Assembly (NCBI GenBank): GCA_017303905.1
Contig: JAFLBH010000001.1
Span: 511,809 to 535,808 of the forward strand
Direction of reading: 5' to 3'
DNA length: 24,000 nucleotides
Origin: Bacteroidota bacterium
GTDB taxonomy: Bacteria; Bacteroidota; Bacteroidia; B-17B0; Aurantibacillaceae
Position numbers and translations under genes: made by a program. Every line of letters begins with the position of its first letter. The stretch's first letter is position 1. Shown here one piece after another: positions 3,804-15,123 of the stretch. Under the pieces are notes generated by a model that did no database searches, was not told the DNA's origin, and saw only the letters and a list, made by a program, of their open reading frames with translations.

Positions 3804-3883
3804 TTAAATGTTTTTTATTATATGTTTAGTGTTATTCATTCAAGTTAACATTTAACATAAAAAGCATATTGAAAAATGTTAAA
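3804..3883. repeat. Direct repeat DR1 (80 bp; perfect 74 bp core 3810-3883), immediately upstream of the radA start
   Basis: It matches 4312-4391 at 79/80 positions, with the single mismatch at 3809 vs 4317. It contains a 9 bp inverted repeat, TTAACATTT (3845-3853) / AAATGTTAA (3874-3882). Confidence 0.95.
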
Positions 3884-3907: not shown

Positions 3908-4276
3908 TTACTTGTTTCTTCTGGCTGTTTCAATACTTTTTACGAATATTGAAATGAGCTCTTTACATTCTTTATTTGCCCTTTCAACTTTATCAAGCTC
4001 TTTTATCAAAGGTTTTCTTTTGACAATTTCCAAGGCAATGCTTGTTTCTTTCAATTCTTTTAGACAAATTTTCATTTTATGAATGAAATCGTTTCTGGAT
4101 TCTGCTACTTGAGCCTCACCGTAATTAAAAGCGGGAGAGGTGCCCGAACGAAGCAGCTGTCCCGCTATGTGATTTCCGGCCTTAGTATTCGGCAACATTT
4201 CTACAATTTCCATATTTAATAAAGAAAAACTGATTAAGCGTTCTTCCAAATCAAACTTTTTTCCAACCTCTGCCAT
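3908..4276 (-). CDS. Four-helix-bundle protein (23S rRNA intervening-sequence protein family, TIGR02436-like; distant relative of DGR Avd)
   Basis: 122 aa with an ATG start. Typical family features are present: LEERLISFS...., AGNHIAGQLLRSGTSPAFNYGEAQVAESRNDFIHKMKICLKELKET..W/AL. The size and all-helical pattern fit the family. Confidence 0.8.
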   Translation of the reverse strand: MAEVGKKFDLEERLISFSLLNMEIVEMLPNTKAGNHIAGQLLRSGTSPAFNYGEAQVAESRNDFIHKMKICLKELKETSIALEIVKRKPLIKELDKVERANKECKELISIFVKSIETARRNK

Positions 4277-4311: not shown

Positions 4312-4391
4312 TTAAACGTTTTTTATTATATGTTTAGTGTTATTCATTCAAGTTAACATTTAACATAAAAAGCATATTGAAAAATGTTAAA
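4312..4391. repeat. Direct repeat DR2 (second copy of the 80 bp radA-upstream sequence), upstream of the four-helix-bundle gene
   Basis: The perfect 74 bp core at 4318-4391 equals 3810-3883. The same internal 9 bp inverted repeat is present. Confidence 0.95.
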
Positions 4392-7458: not shown

Positions 7459-7634
7459 AACCCCTCTGTCCTGCGGACATCTCCCCTTAGCAGGGGAGAA
7501 TTTTGTCATGGTCGATTCAAACTTTTTAGCAAAGATTTTCTTAATTGATAATATAAGCTCCATCAAAAACGGGCAGCTCCTCCCCCTGCTAAGGGGGAGT
7601 GCGCTTACGCGAAAGCGTAAGGGCGAGGGGGTTT
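7459..7634 (+). repeat. Nested-hairpin MITE-like element, copy 1 (hairpin order D-C-centre-B-A on the + strand)
   Basis: Its reverse complement aligns along its full length to 13793-13958. Termini are AACCCCTC ... GAGGGGGTTT. Hairpins are GTCC-TGC-GGAC, CTCCCCT-TAGC-AGGGGAG, CTCCCCC-TGCTAA-GGGGGAG and the variant CTTACGC-GAAA-GCGTAAG (7604-7621). A solo terminus remnant, GGGAGGGGGTTT, lies at 7650-7661. Confidence 0.85.
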
Positions 7635-7764
7635 ATCACTTACACAAAAGGGAGGGGGTTTGCAACTCAATACCCCAAGGGCTTTTACCTTACACTTTCA
7701 TATGTCCCTAAAAATTTGTTATTTCAAACTGTAACCAAAAAACTAATTTGCGTTATTGCCCCGG

Positions 7765-9278: not shown

Positions 9279-9935
9279 ATGAGTAGCGCTAAAGAAAAAC
9301 TATTAAAGAAATTATTAGACAATGTAGGAAAGACTCTTACTAGAGAGCTTTTAAGTAAAACAGCAAATGTACACGACTGGCAAAGATCATTAAGAACTCT
9401 AAGGCAAGAAGGATGGCAGATTGTTTCGAGCAAGGAAGGCTATACACTCGTTTCTGAATTAAAGAATGAAACAAAGAAAAGCAGAATCACAATAAACAAT
9501 AAATTGCGCTATTCTATTTTACAAAGAGATAACTCAACTTGTCAAAGATGCGGAAAGACAGTACAAGACGGTATAAAATTGGAAGTTGATCATAAAATTC
9601 CCGTAGAATGGAACGGAACAAACGACGTTGAGAACTTGTGGACTCTTTGTAATGAGTGTAATGGAGGTAAAAAGCATTTTTTCTCTGATTTTGATGATAA
9701 AATAATGAGGGAGGTGATGAATGAAAAGAGCGGATATCAGCGTTTAGTAAAATTGTTTAAACTTAGTCCGAATACCGTTATAGAGCCAATAAAATTAGAG
9801 GCCATAAGCGGCATTAGGGACTGGACTAGAACTATTAGATTAATTAGATCAAAAGAAAAACTTAATCTTGTTTGGATAGATAAATCAACGGAGTTCCCGC
9901 AAGGAGGATACAAATTAATCAGACAAAAGAATTAA
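9279..9935 (+). CDS. HNH-family endonuclease, putative type II restriction endonuclease of the island
   Basis: 218 aa. The central HNH/zinc motif is CQRCGKTVQDGIKLEVDHKIPVEWNGTNDVENLWTLCNECNGGKKH. It appears coupled to the C gene and is convergent with the C5-MTase. Two similar wHTH-like modules flank the nuclease core. Confidence 0.65.
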   Translation: MSSAKEKLLKKLLDNVGKTLTRELLSKTANVHDWQRSLRTLRQEGWQIVSSKEGYTLVSELKNETKKSRITINNKLRYSILQRDNSTCQRCGKTVQDGIKLEVDHKIPVEWNGTNDVENLWTLCNECNGGKKHFFSDFDDKIMREVMNEKSGYQRLVKLFKLSPNTVIEPIKLEAISGIRDWTRTIRLIRSKEKLNLVWIDKSTEFPQGGYKLIRQKN

Positions 9936-11206
9936 ATATGCTTAAAAAGCGTTTCAATTATTAATTTCCCGGTTGCTTTAATTGCAGGCACCGCAACTGA
10001 ATTTCCAAATTGTTTATAGGCAGATGCATCAGCCACAGGAATTAAATAATTATCAGGAAAGCCTTGTAGCCTTGCCCATTCTCTAGGGGTCATTTTACGA
10101 ATTCCCTCCCTGTTTACTTCTCCCTTAATTTTTGTTTCAGGCGTAAAATCTTTTAAGCGAGTATCAATAATTAAATTTCTTTCTCGTCCCATTCCGCCGC
10201 AAACAACAGCGTTGGCGATCCCTTTGTCGGGAATAATTTCGTAACCAAAACCATTGCCTTTATTGGCATGCCTTTCTTTATGGGCTTTTAAGGTTTTTAA
10301 ATATTGAGTAGACAAATAATATCTTGCTGAAACAGGTTTTTTCTCCTTGATATCAGAAAACTTAACTTTCTTATCGGTTGGTTTAGGGTAATTAAAACTA
10401 GTAACTTTTAAATCTTTTCTAAAACCTACAATAAAAATTCTTTCTCTGTTTTGTGGTACACCAAAATCTTTTGCATTAATGATTTGAGGCTCGGGCACAA
10501 AATATCCTAAATCATTTCTTAATACATTTAATATGGTTTCTAATGTTTTTCCTTTGTCGTGATTTCTTAATCCTTTTACGTTTTCAAGAAAAATAGCTTT
10601 TGGTTTTTTTCTTCTAATAATTTCAGCTACATCAAAAAACAAAGTACCACGTGTATCCTCAAAACCGCCTCTTTTTCCTGCTATAGAAAATGCTTGGCAA
10701 GGAAAACCCGCACACAACACATCGAATCCATCAGGTATAAATTTCTTTGTTTCTTCCTTGGTAATATCACCAAACGGAACTTCACCAAAATTAGCTTTAT
10801 ATGTTTTTTGCGCCTCTTTATCCCACTCACTTGTAAAAACACATTTGCCTCCGAGACTTTGCATTGCTATACGAAAACCGCCAACCCCGGCAAACAAATC
10901 AATAAACTTAAACGTATAATTTTCAGGTGTTGGAAATGGAACGTTTTCTACTTCAAAAAGTAATTGTTGTAAGGCGCTTTCAGCAACCTCCGAATATTTT
11001 ATATTAGGAAACTTATAAAGCACCATTTCCTTTATAAATTTTTCCGCTTCTTTTTTGTAATGTTTTTTTACGCCGTTATGATAGTTGTGAAGATAGTGTG
11101 TAACAACTGCCTTTTTGTTGCTTTCAGGTTCTACCAGTTTAATTCTAAACTTTTTCCCTTCAAAATCATCGATTGTTATACTTTCTTTCAGCTTCATGAA
11201 TAGCAT
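9932..11206 (-). CDS. dcm: DNA (cytosine-5)-methyltransferase, Dcm/M.HhaI-like
   Basis: All the conserved motifs are present: I FIDLFAGVGGF, IV GFPCQAFSIAGKRGG, FEDTRGTLFF, VI ENVKGL, VIII QNRERIFIVGF, TRD segment KGNGFGY and X QFGNSVAVP. GGKCVFTSEWDKEAQKTYKANF closely matches E. coli Dcm. An alternative ATG is at 11197. An N-terminal extension of about 95 aa has unknown function. Confidence 0.95.
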   Translation of the reverse strand: MLFMKLKESITIDDFEGKKFRIKLVEPESNKKAVVTHYLHNYHNGVKKHYKKEAEKFIKEMVLYKFPNIKYSEVAESALQQLLFEVENVPFPTPENYTFKFIDLFAGVGGFRIAMQSLGGKCVFTSEWDKEAQKTYKANFGEVPFGDITKEETKKFIPDGFDVLCAGFPCQAFSIAGKRGGFEDTRGTLFFDVAEIIRRKKPKAIFLENVKGLRNHDKGKTLETILNVLRNDLGYFVPEPQIINAKDFGVPQNRERIFIVGFRKDLKVTSFNYPKPTDKKVKFSDIKEKKPVSARYYLSTQYLKTLKAHKERHANKGNGFGYEIIPDKGIANAVVCGGMGRERNLIIDTRLKDFTPETKIKGEVNREGIRKMTPREWARLQGFPDNYLIPVADASAYKQFGNSVAVPAIKATGKLIIETLFKHI

Positions 11207-11600
11207 TAACTATTTTGGTTATACAATATTGCAAATTTTCCTCTATTTCTTTTCCCCAAAAACGCAAAACTTGCCAATTTTCTTTTAACAAAACCTTATT
11301 AACTTCTTTGTCTCTGGCAATATTTCTTTCAATTTTCTTATGCCAAAAGTCTTGATTGCTTTTATGGTCATGTTTTCGCTTTTTCCAATCCTTGCCGTGC
11401 CAGAATTCACTGTCAACAAAAACGGCAATTTTGAGTTTTTTAAAAGTTAAATCCGGCTTACCGAAAACACTTTTATCATTTTTTCTATATCGATATCCTT
11501 TCACCCAAAGGGTTTTTGAAAGCAAGACTTCAATCTTAGAGCCTTTGCTTTTTACTGCCTGCATGTTTTTACGTCGTTGTTCTTTGGTGAGCTTATCCAC
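11166..11600 (-). CDS. vsr: Very-short-patch repair endonuclease Vsr
   Basis: LTKEQRRKNMQAVKSKGSKIEVLLSKTLWVKGYRYRKNDKSVFGKPDLTFKKLKIAVFVDSEFWHG matches the Vsr N-terminus and catalytic core. No ATG precedes the conserved N-terminus. The track uses TTG 11639; I prefer GTG 11600 (VDKLTKEQ). The 3' end overlaps the dcm start by 32-41 nt. Confidence 0.8.
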   Translation of the reverse strand: MDKLTKEQRRKNMQAVKSKGSKIEVLLSKTLWVKGYRYRKNDKSVFGKPDLTFKKLKIAVFVDSEFWHGKDWKKRKHDHKSNQDFWHKKIERNIARDKEVNKVLLKENWQVLRFWGKEIEENLQYCITKIVNAIHEAERKYNNR

Positions 11601-11712
11601 AAAGCGAAAATAGAACAAAGTGTAAAAACAGGGAAACAAAATTATATTAAAAGAATAACAATGCTTGCTATAAAATGTAGCATTTTTTTAAAGTAAGAAA
11701 AAAAGAAAGTAA

Positions 11713-12834
11713 CTACCTCTTATTAATCAACTCATTTGTCTTCAGCAGCAAATCCATAAATAAAATTTTAGGATTAGCGTTGCGCTCTATGTAATAACAG
11801 TTGCTATTAAATTCTTCTACCAGCATTTCGTAATTGCGCTGGGTAATAAAAGGCGCAAATTTTTCTAAGAATTGTTTTTCGTTGCCGCTCAAGCGCACTA
11901 AATCGCGTGAGCCAAAATTATACATCAAACAATCTCTGAATATCTCGAGTCCGTATTGTAAAAATTGTTTTTGTTTTTCGCGTCCTGTTGCAGCGTTCTG
12001 GTCAATCCACTGCAAGGCTTTGTCGCAATCAAACTTTAAAGCCAGGCGCATAAAGCTTTGGAAGTGTTGCAAAAAAGATAATTGCTCATCGCTTTGCGTT
12101 AATAGTTTGATGGCTTCATTAAAATTGCTGTCGCATAAAAATGCCGCTTGCTGCGCGTTCTCTTCGGTAACACCAAACTTTTTTACCAAGGCTTCTTTTA
12201 TCTCCGCTTCCTGTAAACGCAAAAACGGTATTTGTTGCACGCGCGAAATAATTGTAGCCAATAACTGATCAGGATTATTACACACCAAAATAAAAATGGT
12301 TTGTTCAGGCGGCTCTTCCAATACCTTTAATAATTTATTGGCGGCTTCGGTGTTCATTTTCTCCGGCTGCCAGATGATCATTATTTTGTATAGTCCCTCG
12401 TAACTGGTATAACTTAATTCGCGGATGATATTGCCGCTTTCCTCAACAGGAATAATCGGTTGTTTGTTTTCTGCATCCAGACCTTCAAACCAATCGTTTA
12501 AACTTAAGTAAGGATTTTCTAAAAACGCCTCACGGAATTCCTTAATTAAATCGGCGCTGCTTTTTACATCTTTCGATTTGGCGATAGGAAACACCAAGTG
12601 CAAATCAGGATGTACCAATTTATTTGTTTTCTGACAACTCGGACATTCACCGCAGGCATCGTTGTTTTGTTTGTTGCTGCAAAATAAATATTGCGCAAAA
12701 GCCATAGCGGTTCCTAAATTGCCGCTGCCTTCATAGCCTGTAAATAAAAGTGCGTGAGGTAAACGGTTTTCATTCACCATTTTTATCAAACGATCTTTTA
12801 CTTCTTTTTGTCCAACTATGTCGCGTAGCAGCAT
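11713..12834 (-). CDS. holB: DNA polymerase III delta-prime subunit (HolB)
   Basis: The sequence reads MLLRDIVGQKEVKDRL...HALLFTGYEGSGNLGTAMAFAQYLFC...CGECPSCQK...HPDLHLVFP...VLEEPP. The track ORF (to 12945, TTG start) reads through repeat copy 2. ATG 12834 is the first Met and aligns with the family N-terminus. Confidence 0.9.
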   Translation of the reverse strand: MLLRDIVGQKEVKDRLIKMVNENRLPHALLFTGYEGSGNLGTAMAFAQYLFCSNKQNNDACGECPSCQKTNKLVHPDLHLVFPIAKSKDVKSSADLIKEFREAFLENPYLSLNDWFEGLDAENKQPIIPVEESGNIIRELSYTSYEGLYKIMIIWQPEKMNTEAANKLLKVLEEPPEQTIFILVCNNPDQLLATIISRVQQIPFLRLQEAEIKEALVKKFGVTEENAQQAAFLCDSNFNEAIKLLTQSDEQLSFLQHFQSFMRLALKFDCDKALQWIDQNAATGREKQKQFLQYGLEIFRDCLMYNFGSRDLVRLSGNEKQFLEKFAPFITQRNYEMLVEEFNSNCYYIERNANPKILFMDLLLKTNELINKR

Positions 12835-12883
12835 AGAGCAAATATACACTTCCGAGAGGAGAATAGAAAGATTATTTGGGGAT

Positions 12884-13087
12884 AAACCCCCTCCCGCTTC
12901 GCGGACTCCCTCCCGATTATCCCGATAGCTATCGGGACGGGACAAGCTCTTAGCAGGGGGAGAGGCTGTTCGTTTTTGATTCAGCTTTAATTTTCAATAA
13001 GGGAAAATCGTAGCTAAAAATTTTGAATTTACCATGAAAGAATTCTCCCCTGCTAAGGGGAGATGTCGCGTAGCGACAGAGGGGTTT
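12884..13087 (-). repeat. Nested-hairpin MITE-like element, copy 2 (with a ~38 nt structured expansion in hairpin B)
   Basis: The termini and architecture match copy 4. The expansion at 12911-12948 contains TCCCG/CGGGA around a perfect 16 nt palindrome, CCCGATAGCTATCGGG (12921-12936). Hairpin D is GTCGC-GTA-GCGAC (13065-13077). Confidence 0.85.
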
Positions 13088-13137: not shown

Positions 13138-13331
13138 AAAACCCCCTCCCGCTTCGCGGACTCCCCCTTAGCAGGGGGAGGGGCTTTCCGTTTTTGATGG
13201 AGCTTGAATTGTAAAAAAAGGAAAATCGTTGCTAAAAAATTTTTAATCTACCACGAAAGAATTCTCCCCTGCGAAGGGGAGATGTCCGAACTTGCCAGCC
13301 GTGGCGCAGCAGGCTGGGGACAGAGGGGTTT
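13138..13331 (-). repeat. Nested-hairpin MITE-like element, copy 3 (with a ~30 nt structured expansion in hairpin D)
   Basis: The outer D stem GTCC (13284-13287) / GGAC (13318-13321) is retained. The inserted inner stem is CCAGCC (13295-13300) / GGCTGG (13312-13317). The rest is collinear with copy 4. Confidence 0.85.
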
Positions 13332-13342
13332 ATGCCACTCTT

Positions 13343-13708
13343 TCATTTATTTTGAAAATAGGATTTAATTAAATCTAACACACCCTCAGTGTTTTTAAAA
13401 ACATGCTCGTTTTCAATTCTAACGGTTCTTATACCATACTTTAATAATAAATCATCTCGCTGCTTGTCATGTTCAAATCCAACAACAGTGAAGTGATGTT
13501 CTCCGTCTAACTCAACAGCTAATTTTTCTTCTGCACAATAAAAATCAAGAATGAAATTTTTGAAACTGTGTTGTCGTCTAAATTTTCTTCCTTCCAGCTG
13601 AGAATTTTTTAAATATTTCCAGAGTATTTTCTCAGGAACAGTTGTGTTATCTCTTAAATCTTTTCTGTATTCTTTTAAATAAGACCTGTTATTATTTCTT
13701 ATCTGCAT
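13343..13708 (-). CDS. DUF559 endonuclease-domain protein (Vsr-like / PD-(D/E)XK fold)
   Basis: 121 aa with an ATG start. EKILWKYLKNSQLEGRKFRRQHSFKNFILDFYCAEEKLAVELDGEHH...RDDLLLKYGIRTVRIENEHV is the typical DUF559 pattern. Repeat copies 3 and 4 flank it. Confidence 0.85.
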   Translation of the reverse strand: MQIRNNNRSYLKEYRKDLRDNTTVPEKILWKYLKNSQLEGRKFRRQHSFKNFILDFYCAEEKLAVELDGEHHFTVVGFEHDKQRDDLLLKYGIRTVRIENEHVFKNTEGVLDLIKSYFQNK

Positions 13709-13792
13709 ACAGCAAAATTATAAGGAGTTGTTTTTGATCCTTGCTATAATTTGTAGTTTTTTTGGTTAAGACCTTTTATTATATTTAAGAAC

Positions 13793-13958
13793 AAACCCCC
13801 TCCCGCTTCGCGGACTCCCCCTTAGCAGGGGGAGGGGCTGTTCGTTTATAAATTGGCTTGAATTGTAAAAAAAAGGAAAATCGTTGCTAAAAATTTTGAA
13901 TCTATCACGAAAGAATTCTCCCCTGCCAAGGGGAGATGTCCGCAGGACAGAGGGGTTT
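13793..13958 (-). repeat. Nested-hairpin MITE-like element, copy 4 (minimal/consensus form)
   Basis: The termini are AAACCCCCTC ... GAGGGGTTT. Hairpin A is 13803-13813 (CCGC-TTC-GCGG). Hairpin B is 13815-13834 (CTCCCCC-TTAGCA-GGGGGAG). Hairpin C is 13918-13935 (CTCCCCT-GCCA-AGGGGAG). Hairpin D is 13938-13948 (GTCC-GCA-GGAC). Confidence 0.85.
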
Positions 13959-14007: not shown

Positions 14008-15123
14008 TTACCCCACCAAACTATACATTTTTCCGGGTAGGGAGCGAATGACGTTGGAGAATTCGAGTTGCAATAATAAGGCCGCTACTTTGCTAATGGT
14101 AAATCCGGAGGCGTAACTGATTTCATCCATGTGCAATTGCTTTTTTTCCTTAAAGCAATTCACAATTTTTTGTTCTTCTTCGCTGAGGTTAATTAAGAGC
14201 GGAATTTGTGAACTCTCTTTCTTTTTACTTTTTGTTTCGCTTTCCCAACCCATCACATAAAACAAATCCGCTGCACTTTCCATCAATGCTGCTTTATTCG
14301 ATTTTATAAAACCGTTACATCCTTCACTCATTACATCCGTACTTCTTCCCGGAAAGGCAAACACATCTTTATTATAACTGTTAGCAATGGTGGCCGTGAT
14401 TAAACTTCCGCCATCGCGTTTACTTTCCATCACAATCAAGGCATCGCACATACCCGCCACAATACGGTTTCGCTTCGGAAAATTAACGGCATCCGGATTA
14501 GTACCGCTTCTGAAATCGGTAAGTATCCCGCCCTTCTTTTGCATTTTCATGGCAATACTTGTGTGTGTTTGAGGATACATGCGATCGAGTCCGTGCGCTA
14601 CAACACCCACCGTATCCAAATCATTTTCCAAGGCTTTTTTGTGTGCTAACACATCAATGCCATAGGCTAATCCGCTCACCACTAAAACACCACTGCCGCG
14701 TAATTCATTCACTAATTTTTCGGTTTGCTCTCTGCCGTAATCGGTGGGCTGACGTGTGCCTACAATGGCCACAATCTTTTCAGTATTTAAATCGGCATTG
14801 CCTTTGTAATAGAGTAAAACCGGACTATCACTGCAATATTTTAAACGCTGCGGATATTTTTCATTGGTAAAAAAGAGCGTTTCAATGTTGTTTTCTTCAA
14901 TGAAACGAACTTCTTTTTCGGCTTCTTTCAAAACGTGTTGCTGCGCAATAATCGCTTTGGCTAGACCTTCGCCCACACCCGGAATTTTCAATAATTGCGC
15001 TTTATTTGCTTTAAAAATCTCTTCGGCATTTCCGCAATAAGCTAAAAGATTTTTAGCCACCACATCTCCAACGCCTTCCAATAGGGTTAAACCTACCTGA
15101 TACAACAATTCGCCTCCCACCAT
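14008..15123 (-). CDS. dprA: DNA-processing protein DprA (Smf)
   Basis: 371 aa. VAIVGTRQPTDYGREQTEKLVNEL...VVSGLAYGIDVLAHKKALE...TVGVVAHGLDRMYPQTH is the Rossmann-like DprA core. An N-terminal HhH-like region and a C-terminal wHTH-like tail are present. Confidence 0.92.
   Translation of the reverse strand: MVGGELLYQVGLTLLEGVGDVVAKNLLAYCGNAEEIFKANKAQLLKIPGVGEGLAKAIIAQQHVLKEAEKEVRFIEENNIETLFFTNEKYPQRLKYCSDSPVLLYYKGNADLNTEKIVAIVGTRQPTDYGREQTEKLVNELRGSGVLVVSGLAYGIDVLAHKKALENDLDTVGVVAHGLDRMYPQTHTSIAMKMQKKGGILTDFRSGTNPDAVNFPKRNRIVAGMCDALIVMESKRDGGSLITATIANSYNKDVFAFPGRSTDVMSEGCNGFIKSNKAALMESAADLFYVMGWESETKSKKKESSQIPLLINLSEEEQKIVNCFKEKKQLHMDEISYASGFTISKVAALLLQLEFSNVIRSLPGKMYSLVG

Follow-up and report, generated by a model that had tools for sequence, protein, structure and literature searches.

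Why does a small nuclease gene stand between copies of a short structured repeat, and do the gene and the repeats belong together? This question is raised by a 24,000-nucleotide (nt) stretch of DNA from a Bacteroidota bacterium (Aurantibacillaceae; assembly GCA_017303905.1, contig JAFLBH010000001.1, positions 511,809 to 535,808 of the forward strand), hereafter called the window, in which a DUF559 gene is bracketed by repeats of about 170 bp. DUF559 is a very widespread domain without an assigned role. The BoxC/PIT/TMECO repeats, which the repeats of this genome resemble, have been without an associated protein since the 1990s, and a 2015 survey found no mobility function nearby. In the present study, DUF559 genes were associated with hairpin repeats, the clade of the nuclease was paired with the type of the repeat, the number of hairpins was linked to the presence of the matching clade, the genes changed their genomic location, and an operator motif preceded them. 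We tentatively favor the reading that DUF559 encodes an SOS-induced nuclease that may act on its own repeats, in a manner similar to REP/RAYT systems but with an unrelated enzyme.

Results

The window gene is one of four DUF559 genes in the 3.95-Mb genome. These paralogs are 40-54% identical and are nested in three repeat families; the two closest (54% identical) are both found with family 1, the repeat of the window. The window gene (13343..13708, minus strand) lies between full family-1 copies in the same orientation, 11 nt downstream (copy B) and 84 nt upstream (copy C), as an earlier note on this DNA had described. Paralog C3:515053 has a family-1 unit 217 nt upstream. Paralog C3:420795 is flanked by two-plus-two copies of a second repeat, CTCACCCCC...CCCCCTCTCTACGCGTAGAGAGGGGG...GGGGGTGAG, and paralog C1:1658137 is located between copies of a third, CCCTCTCCC-TT-GGGAGAGGG-ATTAA-GGGTGAGGG.

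All three families contain hairpins of one class, which we defined as homopyrimidine/homopurine arms of at least 6 bp with at least 4 G/C and a loop of 2-10 nt. The genome contains 85 such hairpins, 77 of which are intergenic, and 90 of its 3162 crude genes (2.8%) have one within 250 nt. All four DUF559 genes are beside hairpins. Hairpins on both sides were found at three of the 3162 crude genes only, each of which is a DUF559 gene; the fourth DUF559 gene is flanked on one side. The earlier note had proposed that the gene and the repeats belong together, and enrichment of the repeats near DUF559 genes had been set beforehand as a test of this idea. This enrichment was observed within the genome and, as described below, also in relatives.

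A mirror copy of the adjacent arm accompanies 45 of the 85 hairpins on the proper side (24 G-mirrors and 24 C-mirrors), versus 0 and 1 on the wrong side. In family 1, the mirror segment follows a spacer of 12-13 nt, not N3. Family-3-like C-tailed hairpins were also noted in long crude open reading frames (ORFs) at G000:C1:850845-850868 and G000:C5:42531-42554 (G000 being this genome), where they may represent either solo repeats read in frame or errors of gene calling.

Two Y1_Tnp (RAYT-type) genes of the same genome (G000:C1:1771000-1771400 and G000:C5:325100-326050) sit in REP arrays of their own, which consist of six copies of AAAAAGTCCCGTAGGGACGACCTA and of CGCCCTNNAGGGCG-type hairpins, both unlike the DUF559-linked repeats. 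Since both Y1_Tnp genes have their own, different REPs, RAYTs were removed as a likely driver of the DUF559-linked repeats, and they provide a parallel within the genome.

We then consider the relatives, in which 44 stand-alone DUF559 loci from 31 related genomes were searched for hairpins within 350 nt. Hairpins were present at 42 of the 44 loci and were two-sided at about half of them. As judged by neighboring genes, the loci span at least 33 genomic contexts; therefore, the DUF559 genes were not simply inherited in place. The stems of these hairpins are conserved, while their loops vary freely. Relatives that carry the repeats without any DUF559 paralog, the outcome that the earlier note had named as unfavorable to its idea, were not encountered in the genus: all 14 of the other genus genomes searched carry DUF559 genes. 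Flanking hairpins were also found at nine of ten further loci, which came from Cyclobacteriaceae, Bacteroidaceae, Ignavibacteria, a Firmicute, Alphaproteobacteria, and a cyanobacterium. Separately, many DUF559 matches in the relatives lie in-frame within uninterrupted frames of 811-1890 amino acids (aa) (e.g., G006:C132:17266-17577, G011:C11:185424-185738, and G024:C20:116668-116979).

In a maximum-likelihood protein tree, the hairpin stem type tracks the clade of the nuclease, with 10 changes versus a mean of 23 for shuffled labels and none of 200 shuffles as low. The CTCCCC-type hairpin is associated with the clade containing the window DUF559 gene. In the F2 clade (support 99/96), seven of the eight members have the CCCTCTCT hairpin, in at least four contexts. 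The number of hairpins follows the same pairing. Across 15 genomes of the genus, the counts of CTCCCC-type hairpins were 35, 35, 34, 17, 11, 7, and 3 in those with the clade, as against 9, 6, 3, 2, 1, 1, 0, and 0 in those for which no gene of the clade was found (P=0.003 in a one-sided rank test), and CCCTCTCT-type hairpins were likewise more numerous in genomes with the F2 clade (rank test, P=0.026); both P values overstate the significance, given that the genomes share ancestry and are in many cases incomplete. The reversed-pattern control gave 0 in every genome.

The 84-nt spacer between copy C and the window gene contains a palindromic operator of 16 nt, TTGCTATAATTTGTAG (13741..13756), with the core CTAT-AATTT-GTAG at 13744-13756, located 33-48 nt upstream of the ATG. 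Approximately 20 nt after it, in the orientation of the gene, is TAATTTTG (13713..13720, minus strand), which we take to be a Bacteroidota-type -7 promoter box from the known TAnnTTTG consensus. Since this box ends 4 nt before the ATG, the mRNA is predicted to be leaderless or near-leaderless. The same layout of operator and -7 box precedes the other three paralogs and many orthologs.

The 16-mer pattern of the box has 21 hits in the genome, all of them intergenic. The dyad CTAY-N5-RTAG precedes recA, ruvB, a DinB-type polymerase gene, an exonuclease/GIY-YIG gene, and comM (genes assigned with Pfam/NCBIfam). It likewise precedes an integrase, two HigB toxins, a true vsr gene, and all four DUF559 genes, and is carried by one of the two Y1_Tnp genes. 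A single S24-peptidase repressor is encoded in the genome (C5:98981-99763); its N-terminus is a phage-repressor-like helix-turn-helix, and two dyads lie directly before its start codon (G000:C5:99764-99830). Overall, 28 of the 3162 crude genes (0.9%) have a dyad within 130 nt upstream, and these include the four DUF559 genes. Among the stand-alone DUF559 loci of the genus, the dyad is present at 17 of 32, mostly at -48 to -52.

According to the main text of PMC8565304, the non-canonical LexA operator of Bacteroidetes is CTAA-N5-TTAG, with experimentally confirmed variants such as TTAC-AAATT-GTAA, and its core regulon comprises recA, ruvB, dinB, a GIY-YIG exonuclease, and the regulator itself. 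Because the same gene set and the S24 regulator carry the dyad here, CTAY-N5-RTAG may be read as the SOS box of this lineage, a variant of the non-canonical LexA box to which the repressor would bind. Both systems share a 4-5-4 dyad before an S24/CI-like regulator, recA, ruvB, dinB, and a GIY-YIG exonuclease gene. However, the fourth base of the dyad differs, and the main text of PMC8565304 names no DUF559, vsr, HigB, integrase, or RAYT members. The motif suggests that the DUF559 gene is probably damage-inducible. Since the dyad also precedes several selfish-type genes (HigB toxins, the integrase, and Y1_Tnp/RAYT), such genes appear to be wired to DNA damage. The HigB-type toxin genes form a divergent pair at G000:C1:1244510-1246019, where each has a dyad and the pair is interleaved with family-2-type hairpins (CCCTCTCT...AGAGAGGG).

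The earlier note had interpreted the segment just upstream of the ATG (13725-13763) differently, as resembling the center of the repeat. The two do share the 9-mer GTTTTTGAT, and the segment has a loose likeness to the centers of copies A and B. However, this likeness does not exceed chance. The best local alignment of the 84-nt spacer with any repeat center scored 25, a value reached in 4.3% of 3000 cases when random 84-mers were drawn from intergenic DNA of this genome and in 4.7% of cases after shuffling (P about 0.04), and separate repeat copies align to separate parts of the spacer. The family-1 hidden Markov model found no partial copy in the spacer. This alignment null ruled out the repeat center as the origin of the segment, which appears to be better explained by the conserved palindromic operator.

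Family 1 comprises 29 copies at 17 loci of the genome (iterated nhmmer), as singlets and as arrays of two or three. The median identity is 85% and is as high as 96% for copies at distant loci. A unit consists of a left module (C-rich tail, mini-hairpin, and CTCCCCC/GGGGGAG hairpin, in this order), an AT-rich center, and a right module (TCTCCCC/GGGGAGA hairpin, mini-hairpin, and G-rich tail). Its ends, AAACCCCCTC...GAGGGGTTT, are terminal inverted repeats of 9-10 nt, and solo units end in their own inverted repeats. Because the unit is nearly palindromic, the iterated model matches both strands almost equally. Co-orientation of all copies with local transcription was considered and is not general, both orientations occurring among same-strand genes. 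Sixteen of the 17 loci are outside divergent promoter regions.

The DUF559 gene occupies the inter-unit junction between two complete units, not the inside of one unit. Copy A (12883..13087, plus strand) starts 49 nt from the start codon of the holB-like gene, on its upstream side, and has an extra hairpin of ~35 nt in its left module. Copy B (13139..13331, plus strand), which lies past the DUF559 stop codon, has a 27-nt expansion in its right module, and copy C (13793..13958, plus strand; 166 nt) has hairpins at 13815-13834 and 13917-13936. Copies B and C are 95% identical across 164 aligned nt. The single-stranded DNA fold of copy C has an energy of -29.1 kcal/mol (z=-2.4), and no known RNA family of Rfam was matched in the window. 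Copy D (7459..7635, minus strand) is a solo copy without a DUF559 gene and is located 8 nt after the stop codon of an SBBP gene of the type IX secretion system. Outside the repeat loci, the genome contains no paired family-1 ends, just scattered hits with two mismatches, and neither an insertion sequence (IS) with family-1 ends nor an element in the order "left end, gene, right end" was found in it.

G000 and the relative G008 share the entire holB-dprA spacer (1.16 kb), including the gene and all three repeats, at 93% identity. In G010, the holB and dprA flanks are 95-97% identical to those of G000, whereas the 197 nt between them are unrelated to the G000 spacer and contain hairpin repeats of other kinds. 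In the 12 relatives without the cassette (G010 and eleven other genus members), the gap is 4-225 nt. Since the cassette is absent from G010, despite its similar flanks, and from the 11 other genus members, we concluded that it is a recent gain. The comparison of dprA-holB regions that the earlier note recommended thus revealed presence (G008) and absence (G010) of the cassette, but not a precise empty site. Because the entire G010 spacer differs, no precise insertion boundary or target duplication is readable; a clean empty site was not found in G010, G008, G003, or G002. The other proposal of the earlier note, that the repeats may be landing sites of a homing-type DUF559 cassette, would call for precise filled and empty alleles, and G010, the closest relative without the cassette, gave no such pair.

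Among the other sites, that of paralog C3:420795 ends at contig breaks in G010 and G008. A 4.3-kb stretch of G000 (G000:C1:1654873-1659215), which holds the end of the OmpA-like gene region, paralog C1:1658137 with its family-3 repeats, and a further ORF, corresponds to ~55 nt in G010. The site of solo copy D is rearranged in relatives. The holB-dprA and SBBP-ompA gaps hold different hairpin families in different relatives; therefore, these spacers are turnover hot spots. Other hairpin families at these gaps include GGTCGAGCGTAGTCGAGACC, GTCATTGCGAGC...GCGAAGCAATC, and GGTCATTCCGAAC... (L006, G010 holB-dprA; L069, G010 SBBP-ompA; L008, G002).

The ORF list and two similarity matches confirmed the intact 121-aa DUF559 gene of the earlier note. 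The window protein matches Pfam PF04480 with E=1.5e-28 and 99.3 bits (cut-off 20.6; profile positions 3-106 of 109), and all four paralogs of the genome exceed the cut-off. Its residues 26-114 match a solved structure, PDB 3HRL ("endonuclease-like protein"; E=2.7e-12), and the motif D55...E66-x-D68...H71 is conserved across all four paralogs in the alignment. From the profile, the 3HRL match, and the acidic/His motif, the protein is predicted to be a Vsr-like nuclease of the Vsr-fold, PD-(D/E)xK family. No identical protein is on record in other assemblies. Membership of DUF559 in a defense system was considered and rejected, the match being just a weak local one to the nuclease part of DpdF.

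The cassette is flanked on the left by a holB-like gene for the delta' subunit of DNA polymerase III (11713..12834, minus strand; PF13177, E=1.2e-46) and on the right by dprA (14008..15123, minus strand; PF02481, E=1.3e-72). An island consisting of a C5-cytosine methylase gene (PF00145) and an overlapping true vsr gene (TIGR00632, E=2.4e-43) is located at 9932-11639, ~2 kb from the DUF559 gene, and the dyad CTATAAAATGTAG (11668..11680) is upstream of this vsr. Elsewhere in the window, an 80-nt direct repeat with 99% identity (3804-3883 and 4312-4391) surrounds an ORF of 122 aa (3908-4276, minus strand).

Discussion

The two-sided flanking, the clade-specific pairing, and the SOS-type operator together point to a damage-induced nuclease that is paired with its own repeats. 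We favor this reading, in which a free-standing gene and a cognate structured repeat family would form one system, as a tentative one. The S24 repressor, a non-canonical LexA, would act on the CTAY-N5-RTAG box over the promoter, and DNA damage would result in the expression of DUF559. The Vsr-fold enzyme may then recognize its own hairpin type, in an extruded or single-stranded form, and nick or cut there. Repair or recombination at the cut sites would homogenize the repeats, expand the arrays, and carry the nuclease gene along between copies.

Several observations weigh against a nuclease acting on its own repeats. No DUF559 member has a known nuclease activity, cut site, or target duplication. 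The family-1 copies are mostly old, as indicated by their median identity, and the majority of repeat copies stand alone. No clean pair of filled and empty alleles was obtained from the assemblies of relatives, either at the holB-dprA spacer or at the sites of the other paralogs. The SOS box was present at none of 12 DUF559 loci from other genera of the class, and a broader dyad scan of these 12 and six loci of other lineages gave one unrelated dyad only (ATAAGAGTTTTAT, L074). The HigB toxin pair is bracketed by family-2 hairpins; therefore, the repeats are not exclusive to DUF559 genes. The complete (100%) genome G010 has seven CCCTCTCT (family-2) hairpins and no F2-clade gene in its assembly, which has a contig break exactly at the expected site, and family-1-type hairpins occur without the corresponding clade in G011 (nine) and G012 (six). 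In addition, the tree and rank tests overstate significance, the genomes being related.

An alternative is that the gene is a passive passenger. The repeats would spread by other means and pile up in permissive spots, and a gene between two copies would be moved by homologous recombination, for example after natural transformation, which would keep clade and repeat type together without recognition. We consider this possible, but less probable than an active nuclease. It fits the turnover hot spots at the holB-dprA and SBBP-ompA gaps and the predominance of solo copies, the genomes that hold hairpins without the matching nuclease clade, and the hairpins around the HigB pair. Moreover, the avoidance of divergent promoter regions by 16 of the 17 family-1 loci resembles that of REPs and of miniature inverted-repeat transposable elements (MITEs), and the 95% likeness of the bracketing copies B and C is expected of recombination substrates. 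However, passive movement leaves three results unexplained, namely, that two-sided flanking is exclusive to DUF559 among 3162 crude genes, that the arrangement recurs across phyla with quite different hairpin sequences, and that the number of cognate hairpins rises with the matching clade. It also leaves the repeats without any enzyme to spread them.

It is unlikely that DUF559 proteins are simply repair enzymes, that is, Vsr-like mismatch or structure-specific endonucleases of the SOS response, with hairpins that are incidental or serve as terminators, insulators, or mRNA stabilizers. The Vsr-like fold match and the catalytic motif are consistent with such a function, as are the SOS-type box common to the true vsr, recA, ruvB, dinB, and all four DUF559 genes and the C5-methylase 2 kb away. 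A precedent is provided by VsrA of Caulobacter, a damage-induced DUF559 protein that is functionally linked to a solitary C5-methylase (PMC12907096). However, a housekeeping gene would not relocate within a genus, where at least 33 contexts were counted, or be missing from a relative with flanks of 95-97% identity. Terminators or insulators do not require clade-specific stems with mirror tails, and an earlier study cited in PMC4666352 detected neither promoter nor terminator activity for PIT/TMECO motifs. Nor are all box-bearing genes repair genes, since integrases, toxins, and a RAYT are also preceded by the box.

The strict form of the idea in the earlier note, in which the ~170-bp repeats are MITEs deleted from an autonomous, DUF559-carrying element and the upstream segment is a relic of its center, is largely refuted and very improbable: beyond the link between gene and repeats, which was retained, it is supported by the shared 9-mer and the inverted ends of 9-10 nt, whereas the likeness is at the chance level and inconsistent among copies, the segment is accounted for by an operator that also precedes unrelated SOS genes, the position of the gene is the junction of two complete units instead of a unit center, solo units are bounded by their own ends, and no element with a left end, gene, and right end exists in the genome.

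Comparisons with known systems support a DUF559-repeat pairing that would work like REP/RAYT without being a member of that group. As in REPtrons, REPINs, and BIMEs, one small enzyme gene is nested among copies of its own short hairpin repeat, further copies are scattered intergenically as singlets, doublets, and arrays, and the enzyme clade and repeat type co-vary. In contrast, the enzyme here is a predicted Vsr-fold PD-(D/E)xK protein where RAYT systems use a Y1 (HUH) transposase, its repeats form homopurine/homopyrimidine hairpins to which a mirror third strand is added, and the DUF559 gene relocates between species more than RAYTs reportedly do.

The repeats themselves are closest to the TMECO motifs (formerly BoxC/PIT). 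These "intrastrand triplex" repeats were shown to form a triplex in vitro in the case of the E. coli motif, and PMC4666352 reports neither a flanking gene function nor a mobility gene for them and does not mention ycjD, an endonuclease, or DUF559. Both groups consist of a homopyrimidine and a homopurine arm followed by a mirror of the purine arm, and both are multi-copy, intergenic, and located in locally variable DNA. Family 3 nearly corresponds to the E. coli consensus, CCCTCNCCC-N3-6-GGGNGAGGG-N3-GGGNGAGGG, with loops of 2 and 5 nt that fall outside N3-6 and N3. However, family 1 consists of inverted pairs around an AT-rich center (166-nt units), with mini-hairpins of 12-13 nt in place of the short second loop, and the present repeats are tied to a nuclease gene family. 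Their triplex design is predicted from the sequence.

The DUF559 protein VsrA of Caulobacter crescentus (CCNA_02930) is DNA-damage-induced, genotoxic in vivo, and causes an SOS response. It damages DNA when the cognate methylation is missing and is regarded as an enzyme of very-short-patch repair with a tie to YGCCGGCR methylation (PMC12907096). It resembles the present proteins in being genetically unlinked to a methylase, and its damage induction is what the operator predicts here. It differs in that no repeat association was reported, and SOS control of the present genes is predicted from the motif. Two further types of element are less similar. MITEs with an IS partner share the terminal inverted repeats; however, no transposase-bearing element with the same ends was found in the genome. 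Vsr-like (EDxHD) homing endonucleases, such as I-Bth0305I, reside in introns or inteins, and the allele into which they home is defined. They are also Vsr-fold nucleases used by a selfish element; however, the DUF559 gene is free-standing between repeats and has no defined homing site. We found no published description of a DUF559-repeat pairing, and the sole link between DUF559 and repeats in the papers examined was a table in PMC9881135, which gives a 14-fold enrichment of "DUF559 domain-containing protein" among predicted inversion targets, i.e., genes between inverted repeats.

We speculate, as a wider and doubtful extension, that DUF559 nucleases are the missing protein partner of BoxC/PIT/TMECO repeats across bacteria, with each clade recognizing and cutting its own hairpin type. 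In the present lineage, the system would be wired to the SOS response, such that damage may lead to nicking directed at the repeats, to their homogenization or spread, and to movement of the gene. With its four paralogs of the nuclease, three repeat families matched to them, and one operator of the damage-response type common to all four, this genome provides a compact test bed for this. Should the pairing have no function, the SOS control predicted for DUF559, which fits the sole experimental report on a DUF559 protein (VsrA), still extends the SOS regulon of Bacteroidota. If it is functional, it would represent a second selfish system of an enzyme and its repeats beside REP/RAYT, independently evolved on a Vsr-fold enzyme, and would explain a source of intergenic instability.

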